A stretch of DNA of 10,613 bases from IMG/VR virus record IMGVR_UViG_2778261300_000008. One strand, 5' to 3'. Shown here piece after piece: positions 1-9,246 of this stretch. The stretch comes from a virus (lineage: Duplodnaviria; Heunggongvirae; Uroviricota; Caudoviricetes). How positions within the stretch are numbered: the stretch's first letter is position 1; each line of letters begins with the position of its first letter. Under the pieces are notes generated by a model. That model was not told where the DNA came from, did not search any database, and saw nothing but the letters and a program-made list of their open reading frames with translations. A program made the translations under genes and the position numbers.

Positions 1-183
1 CAGGCAGTTCATCGGCTCAATAACATACGGTGCCACCAGCGGATCCCACGGGACTGAGTTCCCTGCCCCCATGGGCACCCGCATATACTGAGCAACGGCA
101 TCAGCAACCCGCATTCGTCTCGGTGCGCGAAGGATATAACCTGAATCGGTTCGTGCTGCCTTTGCGGTTTCCTGATTCAGCAT
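1..183 (-). CDS. Terminase large subunit, N-terminal 61 codons (partial, runs off window start)
   Basis: The ATG at 181-183 overlaps the TAA stop of the upstream small-terminase gene by one base, and the reading frame stays open to position 1. Assignment is by position after the Nu1-like gene; I do not recognise the sequence itself. Confidence 0.45.
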   Translation of the reverse strand, partial: MLNQETAKAARTDSGYILRAPRRMRVADAVAQYMRVPMGAGNSVPWDPLVAPYVIEPMNCL

Positions 184-677
184 TACTCCTCCTGCTGTAA
201 TTCCTCCTCATCATCCGCACCTGCTTCAGTCACCCGCAGGGCTATCTGATCGCGCAGATCATCAATAATGGACTGAACACGGCTCACAGCGGCAGGCTGC
301 AGACCGCAGTCACGTTCAAGAATATCCGGTAATGTCTCCAGCACCTGCACGACCGCTTTTGCCCAGATGGCAAACTCCCGTCTGACATCACTGGCCGGAA
401 TGAGTTGTGCCGTTTCCTGTTCGAACTTAAGACGCTCACGTTCAGACTGATACCAGGCTTTGCGCTCATGCGCGTCCATTTCGCCTTCTGCAACCGGCGG
501 TGGTAATGCCAGAAATGCTGACACAATATCAACCACCCGATAAAGCTTGAGGTTGCTTTCATGCCCCCCTGCAACGGGTAGATTTTGCAGCCTTGCCGCA
601 GCAGTCTGGCGATGTACACCTGACAGTGCCGCCAGTTGACTGATATTCAGCGTCAGATTTTTTAACTCTCGCTCCAT
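183..677 (-). CDS. Terminase small subunit (Nu1-like DNA-packaging protein)
   Basis: 164-aa ORF whose N-terminus aligns by eye with the lambda Nu1 winged-HTH region (ISQLAALSGVHRQTAAARLQNLPVAGGHESNLKLY versus Nu1 KKQLADIFGASIRTIQNWQEQGMPVLRGGGKGNEVLY), followed by an acidic C-terminus. GGAG lies 8 nt upstream of the ATG, and a cos-like site sits about 175 bp upstream. Confidence 0.65.
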   Translation of the reverse strand: MERELKNLTLNISQLAALSGVHRQTAAARLQNLPVAGGHESNLKLYRVVDIVSAFLALPPPVAEGEMDAHERKAWYQSERERLKFEQETAQLIPASDVRREFAIWAKAVVQVLETLPDILERDCGLQPAAVSRVQSIIDDLRDQIALRVTEAGADDEEELQQEE

Positions 678-844
678 ACCCGCTCCAGAATGTTTTAAAC
701 ATGCATCTTGCGAACAACTTTAGGCAAACGGTGTTAGTGGTGAACAAAAAACAATCAAAATCGACACCATAAAAATAAAACCACCGTAATATCAATACAT
801 TACAGTAGTAGTGATGACGAATGAAATTTCAAAAACTAGCCTTT

Positions 845-870
845 TTCCGCGACGCTCCCGCCCCGTGGCA
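845..870 (-). other. Candidate cos site (cosN-like)
   Basis: The minus strand reads GGGCGGGAGCGTCGCGG, against lambda cosN GGGCGGCGACCTCGCGG as I recall it, and the following AT-rich stretch has GCTA/TTT/TGAAA/TTT elements like lambda cosB. It lies about 175 bp upstream of the small-terminase ATG; lambda cosN to Nu1 is about 190 bp. Confidence 0.4.
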
Positions 871-1256
871 GGCCACCCCACCGGGAGGACCCGTCAGCCT
901 GACAGCTCTGACGAACGTCTGATACAACGCCTTGCATGAATGGCATCGGGATAATCCAGAAAGGCATAGCATCGTGCCCACAAGAATCTGTGTAAGTGTC
1001 CTGTTTCTTCCACCCCCGCACAGGACTGGCGAGCATGAGGGACAAACCCGCGAACCATAAACGCGGTAAAAACCCGGTGTGCATCGTTTTTGATTATTCC
1101 CGCACACTCGCGCAGAAGGAGTTCCCCGTCGGGCTACGGTCTCTGTTAATACGGGAATACGGCGACGATACAGCGCATGATGTGTCAGGCTTGAATACCT
1201 TTATCCGTTAAAAGGGATATCAGTTAAGCTATCCCGTGTAGGGTATAAGCCATTAT

Positions 1257-1286: not shown

Positions 1287-1492
1287 AATGGCAATAAAAA
1301 GCCCCGCGAATGCGAGGCTAAATCCTGGTATTTGTAATGACTGGCTCTTATCTCAACGCAGCCCCTTACCGCGCGCAAGATGCTCAATATCAAGCATCAG
1401 CAATGAGATGTTTAATCTGGATTCACTCCAGAAGTGATCACCATCCTGTCTACAGAGCCAGATGTGAAGGATGATGAGTAAAATTATCGCTA

Positions 1493-1960
1493 TCATCGAA
1501 GGCATTGCGTCCTGATGTATTCCTGAAGCGTTCTCAGTGCTGTTTGGTCGCGGATAATTCCGTCCCGGATACCGAGAACGTTTCGTCCAGCAACTGGAGA
1601 GAGTTCGACGGTGGCATCATTGCCCATGCCGGAGGCGCTGGAGGTTTCGGCTGAGGATGGCACAGGGCATTTTCCTTTGACGAACACCCGACCACCATTA
1701 TCAAGCTTGCGCCGAAGAGCATCATTTTCAGCTTTCGCATCAGCTAACTCCTTCGTGTATTTAGCATCGAGTGCATCAGCAGAACGCTGGCGCTGCTGCA
1801 TGTCAGTAATGGTGGCGGTCGCCTGCTTCAGCTCACTGACTTTTTTATCTCGCTGTTCTTTGTAGGCGATGGCGTTATCACGGTAATGATTGACCGCCCA
1901 CGACAGGCAGACGATGATGCAGATAACCAGAGCGGAGATAATCGCGGTTACTCTGCTCAT
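1493..1960 (-). CDS. Rz: i-spanin Rz
   Basis: The product [30 protein letters not shown]... closely matches lambda Rz as recalled. I place the start at the MSRV Met (1958-1960), which overlaps the endolysin stop, rather than at the first ATG of the ORF-track entry. Confidence 0.9.
1534..1740 (-). CDS. Rz1: o-spanin Rz1, lipoprotein embedded in the +1 frame of Rz
   Basis: Product [21 protein letters not shown]... has the lambda Rz1 N-terminus pattern, a lipobox (VVGC) and a proline-rich stretch, and is wholly embedded in Rz. Confidence 0.85.
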
Positions 1961-2454
1961 TGTTGCCCCCACAAACAGACTTCACGCTCAATCTCACGAC
2001 GAGTCATCAGGCCTTTCCATTGCTTACCGCCAGCGTATATCCAGCGACGTAGCTGGTCACATGCGCCTTTGATATCGCCCTGGTTTATTTTGCGAAGAAG
2101 CGTCGATGTTCTGAAATTGCCAGCACCCACGTTGTAGACGAACGAGTAAAGAGCGCCGCGCGTTGTTTCCGGTATATCGACTTTGATGTACGGGTTAATT
2201 TGTCTGGCAACCGTGGCAAGGTCTTTATTCAGGAGGGCTTTGCATTCTGCTTCGGTATACGTTTTACCGAGCATGATGTCTTTTCCGGTGTGTCCGTGAC
2301 ATACAGTCCATACGCCAACGATATCTTTGTATGGTATGTAGCTGACACCTTCCAGGCCATCGTCACCACTTGGGCCAGTGATTAACACTGATGCTATAGC
2401 AATTGCTCCGCCACCAATAGCAGCAGCAACTGCTTTTCGTAATGATGGAGGCAT
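1957..2454 (-). CDS. SAR endolysin (phage 21 R-type lysozyme)
   Basis: The 165-aa product begins [27 protein letters not shown], a glycine/alanine-rich signal-anchor-release N-terminus, and matches phage 21 R as recalled. The start overlaps the stop of the holin remnant (TAATG). Confidence 0.9.
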
Positions 2455-2516
2455 TATTCACCTCTCGCAGCCTTGCGCTTATCTTCTTTAATCTTGAAAT
2501 AAAGGTTTGTCAGGTA
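2454..2516 (-). pseudogene. Pinholin (S21-like) 3' remnant, last ~19 codons only
   Basis: The minus-strand frame ending at the TAA that overlaps the endolysin ATG reads [20 protein letters not shown], matching the recalled S21 C-terminus LTNLYFKIREDRRKAARGE. Upstream of the Tyr codon the frame diverges (PG...), and no transmembrane segments or start codon are present. Confidence 0.6.
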
Positions 2517-2749
2517 CCCTGGCGACGCGCCTTACGCGTTAACCAGCCTTCTGCTTCCAGCCGTGCGATAGCCGTTCTGACGGTACTCATCCCCGCGCCA
2601 ATCTGACGGGCAATGGTTTCAATTGATGGCCAGCACACACCTTCGTCATTACTGAAATCAGCCAGGCGGGCCATAATTGCCACGCTGGATAACTTCATGC
2701 CTGATGCAGCGCAACCATCCCATACATAGCCGGTTAATTTAGTGCTCAT
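2510..2749 (-). pseudogene. Replication-initiator (O-like) N-terminal fragment, truncated at a deletion junction
   Basis: The 79-aa ORF MSTKLTGYVWDGCAASGMKLSSVAIMARLADFSNDEGVCWPSIETIARQIGAGMSTVRTAIARLEAEGWL has a winged-helix fold pattern typical of lambdoid replication-protein N-termini. AGAGG lies upstream of the ATG, and the frame ends with a short unrelated tail (TRKARRQGT*) as it enters the holin remnant. Confidence 0.55.
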
Positions 2750-4732: not shown

Positions 4733-4853
4733 CAAGCGAAACAACGAACAGTCAGGACGCCCACGAAGTAGCCGCCTGGGGCATATGAAGTCCAGGATGA
4801 TTCGTTGAGTCATGTTGTGCCACTAGGCACTCATGTTAAAGCAGGTGTATGAA

Positions 4854-7991: not shown

Positions 7992-9155
7992 ATGTCACTC
8001 TTCCGCAGAGGTGAAATATGGTACGCCAGTTTCACATTGCCGAACGGTAAAAGATTTAAACAGTCTCTTGGAACAAAGGACAAAAGGCAGGCGACAGAAC
8101 TCCATGACAAGCTAAAGGCTGAAGCATGGCGGGTCAGCAAACTTGGTGAAATACCTGATATAACGTTCGAGGAAGCGTGTGTCAGGTGGCTTGAAGAGAA
8201 AGCACATAAAAAATCACTGGACGATGACAAAAGCCGGATCGGATTCTGGCTTCAACATTTCGCAGGAATGCAACTAAGAGACATTACTGAATCAAAAATT
8301 TATTCAGCAATGCAGAAAATGACGAACCGGCGTCATGAGGAAAACTGGAGACTCAGGGCAGAAGCATGCAGAAAAAAAGGGAAACCTGTTCCAGAATACA
8401 CGCCAAAACCAGCGTCCGTTGCAACGAAGGCTACGCATCTTTCATTTATAAAGGCCCTACTAAGAGCCGCAGAGCGTGAATGGAAAATGCTGGATAAGGC
8501 ACCAATTATTAAAGTGCCTCAACCAAAGAATAAACGGATCCGCTGGCTGGAGCCCCATGAAGCACAAAGGCTGATTGATGAATGTCCGGAGCCATTAAAG
8601 TCTGTTGTTGAATTTGCACTGGCAACAGGCTTAAGACGCTCGAACATCATCAACCTTGAATGGCAACAAATAGACATGCAGCGCCGGGTGGCATGGATAA
8701 ACCCGGAAGAGAGTAAATCAAACCGCGCAATTGGCGTTGCGCTGAATGATACTGCATGTCGCGTTTTGAAAAAACAAATCGGGAATCATCACCGTTGGGT
8801 ATTTGTGTACAAGGAAAGCTGTACCAAACCAGACGGAACGAAAGCGCCAACAGTAAGGAAGATGCGGTATGACGCAAACACAGCCTGGAAAGCGGCGCTG
8901 AGACGGGCTGGTATTGATGATTTCAGATTTCACGACTTGAGACACACCTGGGCAAGTTGGCTGGTTCAAGCCGGAGTCCCGTTGTCAGTGTTACAGGAAA
9001 TGGGAGGCTGGGAGTCTATCGAAATGGTTCGTCGATATGCTCACCTTGCACCTAATCACCTTACCGAACACGCACGGCAAATAGACTCGATCCTGAACCC
9101 ATCGGTCCCAAATTCGTCCCAGTCAAAAAATAAGGAAGGTACTAATGATGTGTAA
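7992..9155 (+). CDS. int: Tyrosine integrase, P22 Int type
   Basis: 387-aa product [48 protein letters not shown]...[39 protein letters not shown] closely matches recalled P22 Int, including the catalytic R...HxxR...Y box. GAGGAAAG precedes the ATG, and the stop lies 15 nt from the tRNA 3' end. Confidence 0.95.
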
Positions 9156-9170
9156 CTTATTGATTTAAAT

Positions 9171-9246
9171 GGTGCCGATAATAGGAGTCGAACCTACGAC
9201 CTTCGCATTACGAATGCGCTGCTCTACCAACTGAGCTATATCGGCC
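9171..9246 (-). tRNA. thrW: tRNA-Thr (anticodon CGU)
   Basis: The minus strand reads GCCGATATAGCTCAGTTGGTAGAGCAGCGCATTCGTAATGCGAAGGTCGTAGGTTCGACTCCTATTATCGGCACCA, a 76-nt cloverleaf with a TTCGACT T-loop, anticodon CGT and encoded CCA. P22 Int-type elements are known to target thrW. Confidence 0.92.

Follow-up and report, generated by a model that had tools for sequence, protein, structure and literature searches.

The natural variation of cosN among lambda-like phages is confined to bp 7–12 of the cohesive end, as reported by the Feiss lab (PMC4669245). For example, N15 differs from lambda at bp 9 and 12, and Gifsy-1 differs at bp 8, 9 and 11 (PMC4669245). Changes in this right half of cosN do not measurably affect cleavage (PMC4669245). 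Conservation extends to the CG pairs at the nicks, to the left cosN half and, to a high degree, to the 7-bp cosQ (PMC4669245). For phages of the mEp460/Ayreon type, the announcement of Ayreon did not map cos and expected it within ~1 kb upstream of the gene for the small terminase subunit (TerS). Published phylogeny-based predictions place the large terminase subunits (TerL) of Ayreon and of LLS in the cos / lambda 5'-overhang group. Tritos, a phage that forms virions and plaques on K-12, has been described in a paper that makes no mention of cos (PMC9928086).

Most GenBank records of the mEp460/Ayreon type start at the terminase gene, and cos is not annotated in them. Here, we describe the site in a window of 10,613 nucleotides, the whole stretch of DNA that was analysed (IMG/VR record IMGVR_UViG_2778261300_000008). 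The site is an ordinary cos of the lambda type and belongs to a lambda-like prophage that is very common in E. coli; both the kind of element and the variant are already known. The variant is not new because the same cohesive end already terminates the GenBank records of cdtI and Tritos. The assignment fixes the likely genome ends and the packaging direction for the very common mEp460/Ayreon-type prophages of E. coli. Explicit annotation is a small gain, and the importance beyond annotation is little.

The Cohesive-End Site

It is highly probable that positions 892..678 of the minus strand form a complete cos, consisting of cosQ, cosN and cosB, of a lambda-like mEp460/Ayreon-type prophage that sits at thrW beside proA. 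The elements of this site are listed below, with bp counted from the predicted left end and slashes delimiting the cohesive end.

886..892, minus strand: cosQ heptamer GGGTCCT (bp -28 to -22 from the left end), the packaging-termination element
850..865, minus strand: cosN, 16 bp, CG/GGGCGGGAGCGT/CG
863..852, minus strand: predicted 12-nt 5' cohesive end GGGCGGGAGCGT, by homology
831..851, minus strand: block right of the nick, CGCGGAAAAAGGCTAGTTTTT (bp 13-33), between cosN and the R3-equivalent position
803..817, minus strand: (CAY)n tract TCATCACTACTACTG (bp 47-61), candidate TerS binding site at the R3-equivalent position
790..802, plus strand: match to the IHF consensus, TATCAATACATTA (bp 62-74), candidate equivalent of lambda I1
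742..766, minus strand: conserved T-rich block TGTCGATTTTGATTGTTTTTTGTTC (bp 98-122)

A preliminary description of this DNA had pointed to positions 845-870 as a cos-like site, and direct reading confirms the sequence on which that proposal was built: the minus strand at 863..847 is GGGCGGGAGCGTCGCGG. An ungapped comparison with the corresponding lambda sequence, GGGCGGCGACCTCGCGG, finds 13 of 17 bases identical. The mismatches fall on bp 7, 8, 9 and 11 of the cohesive end and nowhere else in cosN. The left half of cosN (GGGCGG, 863..858) and the CG dinucleotides that flank both predicted nick positions (865..850) are the same as in lambda. By homology, the nicks are predicted at 864/863 on the minus strand and at 852/851 on the plus strand. 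The junction reads ACGGGTCCTTTCCGGTGATCCGACAGGTTACG/GGGCGGCGACCT/CGCGG in lambda and ACGGGTCCTCCCGGTGGGGTGGCCTGCCACG/GGGCGGGAGCGT/CGCGG in the window. Two-fold rotational symmetry, a property for which no threshold is defined, holds at 8 of the 16 cosN positions in the window and at 10 of 16 in lambda.

Since the right half of cosN tolerates change, the window variant is a normal allele and not a defect. The preliminary description had spoken of a variant cosN. This wording is literally true, in that the sequence differs from that of lambda, but it is overstated: the same variant is carried by 63 of 80 related IMG/VR loci, it ends the records of cdtI and Tritos, a single base separates it from the Gifsy-1 end, and its changes lie in the cleavage-neutral half. 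The same description had also noted a lambda-like spacing from the small-terminase ATG, which holds: counted from the predicted left end, the TerS ATG (677) is bp 187, so that 186 bp intervene, and the Nu1 ATG of lambda is bp 191. The site is a further example of a cosN that varies in its right half only, with cosQ and the left half fixed, even with a TerL that is only 25% identical to gpA.

Termini of Related Phages

The region aligns with the cos of lambda, N15, Gifsy-1, mEp213/LLS, cdtI and Tritos; for lambda and N15, such an alignment was a check that the preliminary description had proposed. The reading as a cos upstream of the small terminase gene is supported. The most direct comparison comes from cdtI (AB285204) and Tritos (OV696610). 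Both records begin at GGGCGGGAGCGT; their first 33 nt, GGGCGGGAGCGTCGCGGAAAAAGGCTAGTTTTT, equal window positions 863..831, and their last 9 nt, CCTGCCACG, equal 872..864. In a BLAST search against phage records, cdtI begins exactly at window position 863 and Tritos ends exactly at 864. These termini are the ends as deposited in the records and may have been set by analogy with lambda.

The two phages also share cosQ with the window, and their TerS belongs to the same DUF1441 / PHROG 141 family. They differ from the window in that cosB diverges from bp 34 on and in that the N-terminal region of TerS is different, with ~42% identity overall. A shared 33 bp followed by a diverging cosB and TerS N-terminus is the modular pattern seen in lambda versus phage 21. 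Given this divergence, cdtI and Tritos probably have a packaging specificity other than that of the window, just as lambda and phage 21 differ in theirs.

Close relatives are the lambdoid coliphages mEp460, Ayreon, phi458 and vB_EcoS-569R4, in which the cos-to-TerS region is ~95-98% identical to that of the window and the N-terminus of TerL is the same. The cos of the window differs from those of mEp460, mEp460_4F5 and 569R4 by a few bases only; one of these is bp 12 of the cohesive end, which is G in mEp460 and T in the window. The record of mEp460_4F5 (LR595868; locus L001, positions 1-20) starts 5 nt ahead of the predicted nick and has a right cosN half that is 3 nt short: GGGCGGGAG is followed, after a gap of 3 nt, by CGCGG. 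If this gap is real, the overhang of mEp460_4F5 would be 9 nt, as reported for the cyanophage Cr-LKS3, so overhang length may not be uniform in the mEp460 lineage; the gap could also be an assembly artefact at the physical ends.

Among other phages, Gifsy-1 has the cohesive end GGGCGGCAGCGT, which differs from that of the window at bp 7 only, and the same cosQ. Unlike the window, it encodes a Nu1-type TerS (PHROG 57) and a TerL of the lambda/21 type. The record of Hafnia phage yong2 begins at bp 13. Cr-LKS3, with a TerS that is 40% identical, has been reported to have 5' cohesive ends (PMC9303873), which are followed by a CGCGGAA..GGC.AGTTTTT block. Our procedure recovers the known Gifsy-1 end GGGCGGCAGCGT, differing from lambda at bp 8, 9 and 11 as published (PMC4669245), and it recovers the mEp213/LLS end GGGCGGCGCGCT given both in the literature (PMC12315714) and in the LLS record. 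A full-text literature search for GGGCGGGAGCGT returned unrelated eukaryotic papers only.

Gifsy-2 (locus L229, positions 370-470) encodes a TerS of the same family with 47% identity and reads CACG/GGTGGCTTCGGGCT/CGCGGG at the equivalent place. Neither GGGCGG nor a clear GGGTCCT is present there, and the site is either a divergent or a degenerate cos.

Elements on Either Side of cosN

The heptamer GGGTCCT, which we take to be the cosQ of lambda, lies one base further from the nick in lambda than in the window. It occurs at the equivalent position in cdtI, Tritos, mEp213, Kp4865-4, yong2 and Gifsy-1. Relatives (loci L010-L089) show 1-nt insertions and deletions between cosQ and cosN. Together with the 1-bp-shorter gap in the window, these indels imply that the spacing between cosQ and cosN is not strictly fixed.

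Right of the nick, CGCGGAAAAAGGCTAGTTTTT is identical in cdtI and Tritos, phages with a different cosB and a different TerS N-terminus, and it is nearly invariant among 74 distinct relatives. It resembles bp 13-33 of lambda, CGCGGGTTTTCGCTATTTATG. The pattern CGCGGAA...GGC.AGTTTTT after the nick is recognisable in LLS, in yong2 and in the cyanophage Cr-LKS3 (CGCGGAAGTCGGCAGTTTTT). A block shared even with a cyanophage suggests a conserved contact for terminase or IHF adjoining cosN.

The (CAY)n tract at 803..817 occupies roughly the place of R3, which spans bp 50-65 in lambda and bp 48-60 in N15 (PMC9026076). Tracts rich in CAT and CAC stand about as far to the right of cosN in PhiR47_1, 606R10, 1720a-02, VT1-Sakai, mEp213, Kp4865-4, LLS and yong2. 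The tract of the window may be a TerS binding site. A repeat search of positions 678-900 found no direct or inverted repeats of the R3/R2/R1 type known from lambda, 21, phi80 and Gifsy-1. R2 and R1 are absent from N15 too (PMC9026076), so the three R sequences are not required for membership among lambda-like cos sites.

The adjoining candidate IHF site, TATCAATACATTA, matches the consensus WATCAANNNNTTR exactly, in a window that holds four such matches against 0.42 expected. Its TTATTGA core is common to the window, PhiR47_1, 606R10 and 1720a-02, and VT1-Sakai has TTGTTGT. Similar cores lie in the same area of cdtI (TTTATTGAT) and mEp213 (CTTTGAT). Further right, GTTTTTTGTTC and parts of the rest of the T-rich block are kept in divergent members of the TerS family as well as in the 74 distinct close relatives, and the block at 742..766 is probably the distal part of cosB.

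Terminase Genes

Two terminase genes follow the site on the minus strand.

183..677, minus strand: small terminase subunit gene, 164 aa, DUF1441 type (Pfam E = 2.7e-41)
1..183, minus strand: large terminase subunit gene, first 61 codons, truncated where the window and the source contig end

TerS matches PHROG 141, annotated as terminase small subunit, with E = 1.2e-73. It differs by one amino acid from its counterpart in phage vB_EcoS-569R4 and is 99.4% identical to those of Ayreon, phi458 and mEp460. A comparison of TerS with lambda Nu1 by BLASTP found no similarity, and the protein does not match the Phage_Nu1 model (PF07471), DUF1441 being the only family returned by Pfam. TerS also hits PHROG 57, the family of Nu1, more weakly (6e-10), and Nu1 in turn hits PHROG 141 (6e-8). 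These reciprocal weak profile hits indicate that TerS is a distant relative of Nu1. A search of PDB sequences with TerS gave nothing meaningful, and a single-sequence AlphaFold model of the protein was poor, with a mean pLDDT of 59.7 and values below 50 for the N-terminal 36 residues.

The 61 codons of TerL give no Pfam hit by themselves. All 61 residues are identical to the 700-aa TerL of vB_EcoS-569R4, a protein with GpA_ATPase and GpA_nuclease domains that is 25% identical to lambda gpA (E = 5e-19). What the window shares with lambda is the cosQ heptamer, the ACG that precedes the nick, the left half GGGCGG, the CGCGG that comes after the nick, a distance of ~190 bp to the start of TerS, an IHF site within cosB (a candidate in the window) and, going by the closest phage relative, probably a TerL of the gpA family. 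The unlikeness resides in the position of cosQ, 1 bp closer to the nick, in bp 7, 8, 9 and 11, in the lack of detected R3/R2/R1, in a TerS with no BLASTP similarity to Nu1 and in the low identity of TerL to gpA.

By homology with lambda, the DUF1441-type TerS would bind cosB, between cosN and the TerS gene, probably aided by an IHF-induced bend at 802..790. This binding would position two protomers of the gpA-type large terminase on cosN. Staggered nicks at 864/863 on the minus strand and 852/851 on the plus strand would then leave the 12-nt 5' overhang GGGCGGGAGCGT. Packaging would proceed toward the terminase and structural genes, and GGGTCCT (892..886) would end it at the next cos.

Conservation among Related Loci

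We examined 80 IMG/VR loci, each with a TerS 99% identical to that of the window. The pattern ACG-GGGCGG-N6-CG-[C/G]-GG was matched in 76 of them, 185-187 bp before the ATG; in the other four, a variant lies around the cohesive end or just to its right. GGGCGGGAGCGT, as in the window, is the cohesive end in 63 loci (60 pattern matches and three of the four flank-variant loci), GGGCGGGAGCGG is present in 13, and GGGCGGGAGCAT, GGGCGGCAGCGG and GGGCGGGAGCAG occur in one locus each. One locus (L054) has an expanded, G-rich variant of the cohesive end. Variation of the cohesive end among the 80 loci touches bp 7, 11 and 12 only. GGGCGG is found in all 80, preceded by ACG in all but one.

Left of cosQ, the 80 loci carry flanks of several unrelated sequence types, a mosaic across which the conservation profile climbs sharply at position 892. 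GGGTCCT is kept in every listed flank, and the unmatched locus L054 lacks it in the stretch shown. In a scan of IMG/VR for a 24-mer of the site, all of the matches listed are internal to their loci, none being at a locus end, and they belong mostly to prophages from isolate genomes. The cos together with the DNA-binding segment of TerS is present in 1466 of 5426 complete E. coli genomes (27%), in up to 7 places per genome.

State of the Prophage

Contig NOMQ01000040.1 of GCA_002518655.1 matches the window with 100% identity; in it, the prophage lies at a tRNA-Thr gene (thrW), adjoining proA, and has an integrase gene. The tRNA-Thr (CGT) at 9170-9245 stands directly beside the integrase gene (7992-9155), and an exact IHF consensus at 9153-9165 likely marks the attL region of the prophage. 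An Rfam search returned the tRNA only.

A cos may be genuine by descent and nevertheless inert, in a remnant prophage that can neither replicate nor express its late genes, meets no matching helper and is never cut in its host. We regard this outcome as quite possible, with chances a little below even. It draws its strength from a junction at 2510-2517, where a truncated replication-type gene of the HTH_36 family (79-aa ORF, 2749..2510, minus strand) abuts the final 64 nt of a holin gene; the endolysin gene (2454..1957) follows immediately downstream. Relatives have ~5 kb between the two junction points, with the replication gene, a methylase, RusA, KilA-N, DUF968 and the antiterminator Q. The junction lacks the Q antiterminator gene, the nin-type genes and the greater part of the holin gene, and none of the complete E. 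coli genomes in the collection spans it. The prophage appears to be without Q, most of the replication gene and most of the holin gene, and because this Q-to-holin segment is missing it is probably defective; the phages of the mEp460 group, in contrast, are complete. The contig also breaks inside TerL, ending 2 nt past window position 1 and 185 nt into the large-terminase gene. This contig end hints at a segment of the prophage that is repeated elsewhere, or at an inserted IS element.

Other observations argue against an inert site. In cos, in TerS and in the 61 codons of TerL, the prophage is practically the same as viable phages, and no sign of decay is seen. A matching helper is not far-fetched, given that more than a quarter of the complete E. 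coli genomes carry this type of site. Moreover, with Q deleted, the early rightward operon runs into R, Rz, cos and TerS, and read-through into these genes is conceivable. The cos is intact in sequence in this genome but, given the apparent loss of Q, most of the replication gene and most of the holin gene, would be used only if a matching terminase were supplied from elsewhere or otherwise expressed.

Other Readings of the Motif

Phage records annotate small ORFs across cosQ and cosN, which in the window correspond to 836-1084 (minus strand) and 814-939 (plus strand). The conserved sequence could on this basis be the 3' end of a coding gene, the 82-aa ORF at 1084..836 on the minus strand, which is annotated in mEp460 as mEp460_059 and matches PHROG 17397 (unknown function). 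We consider this very improbable. The ORF has no Pfam match and would be split in virion DNA; the sequence upstream of cosQ is mosaic and poorly conserved, so that conservation begins at cosQ and not at the ORF start; and the 1-nt indels of the relatives between cosQ and cosN would break the frame. Because of these frame-shifting indels and of the onset of conservation at cosQ, the small ORFs annotated across the site are probably not genes.

A GC-rich motif might also resemble lambda cosN by chance and have no role in packaging. The bare match of 13 out of 17 is indeed weak evidence, because a second one exists in the window (4777..4761, minus strand) and because 40 of 300 shuffled windows (13%) contain one or more matches this good to the lambda 17-mer. 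The significance of the site lies in which positions match, in the cosQ 22 bp upstream and in the identity to deposited phage termini. The pattern of functionally conserved positions, ACG/GGGCGG-N6/CGCGG, occurs once in the window with no mismatches, against a chance expectation of 0.01 with one mismatch allowed. In addition, the motif keeps a fixed position upstream of TerS in 76 of the 80 loci and is conserved across a mosaic boundary. Chance resemblance, to which we attach a minimal probability, is contradicted by these comparative data and was rejected.

Finally, headful (pac) packaging, under which the motif would be irrelevant, merits practically no credence: no points in its favour were found, the closest phage encodes a cos-type rather than headful TerL of the gpA family, with both domains of lambda gpA (GpA_ATPase and GpA_nuclease), and the phylogeny-based predictions for Ayreon and LLS point to cos.

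Possible Packaging by a Helper

The preliminary description had further suggested that the element, if its large terminase is intact, might be packaged or mobilised in trans by a helper phage with matching terminase specificity. This idea is plausible, and such packaging would be conceivable because the same cos/TerS type is found in 1466 of 5426 complete E. coli genomes. In the helper-packaging experiments of Feiss, the passive prophage lay between two tandem cos sites (PMC4669245). An unreplicated prophage that has just one cos makes a poor substrate for packaging.

It is unlikely that the intact cos acts as a hitch-hiking packaging origin, at which a phage of the same TerS specificity, either resident in the same cell or superinfecting it, would start packaging in situ at 863/852. 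If it did so, the structural-gene side of the prophage and host DNA beyond attR would be carried into capsids. Such a process would amount to a cos-driven counterpart of lateral transduction or to a rescue of the defective prophage. Helper packaging would bear on gene transfer from defective prophages.

The concept of a non-autonomous element with a cosN that is packaged by the terminase of a helper is that of the cos of PICI satellites, which hijack lambda-like helpers (PMC9026076). PICIs have an rpp gene beside cos and no terminase genes, whereas in the window the cos is followed by the element's own TerS and TerL. A PICI-type cos was rejected, and PICI-like features were not seen in the window.

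A terminator-like hairpin at 1300-1319 (minus strand) follows Rz, and a second hairpin can be seen by eye at ~1240-1270. Next to these hairpins, an opposite-strand ORF at 996-1211 (plus strand; 58-71 aa) matches no family and may be a small moron, situated between the lysis genes and cos. Other contigs (L219, L220 and L221) carry an identical copy of the 79-aa truncated ORF found at the junction, and their homology to the window ends precisely at the stop codon of this ORF (2510). Beyond this position their DNA is different, such as the Mu-like tail and baseplate genes of L219, and position 2510 looks like a recurrent recombination point.
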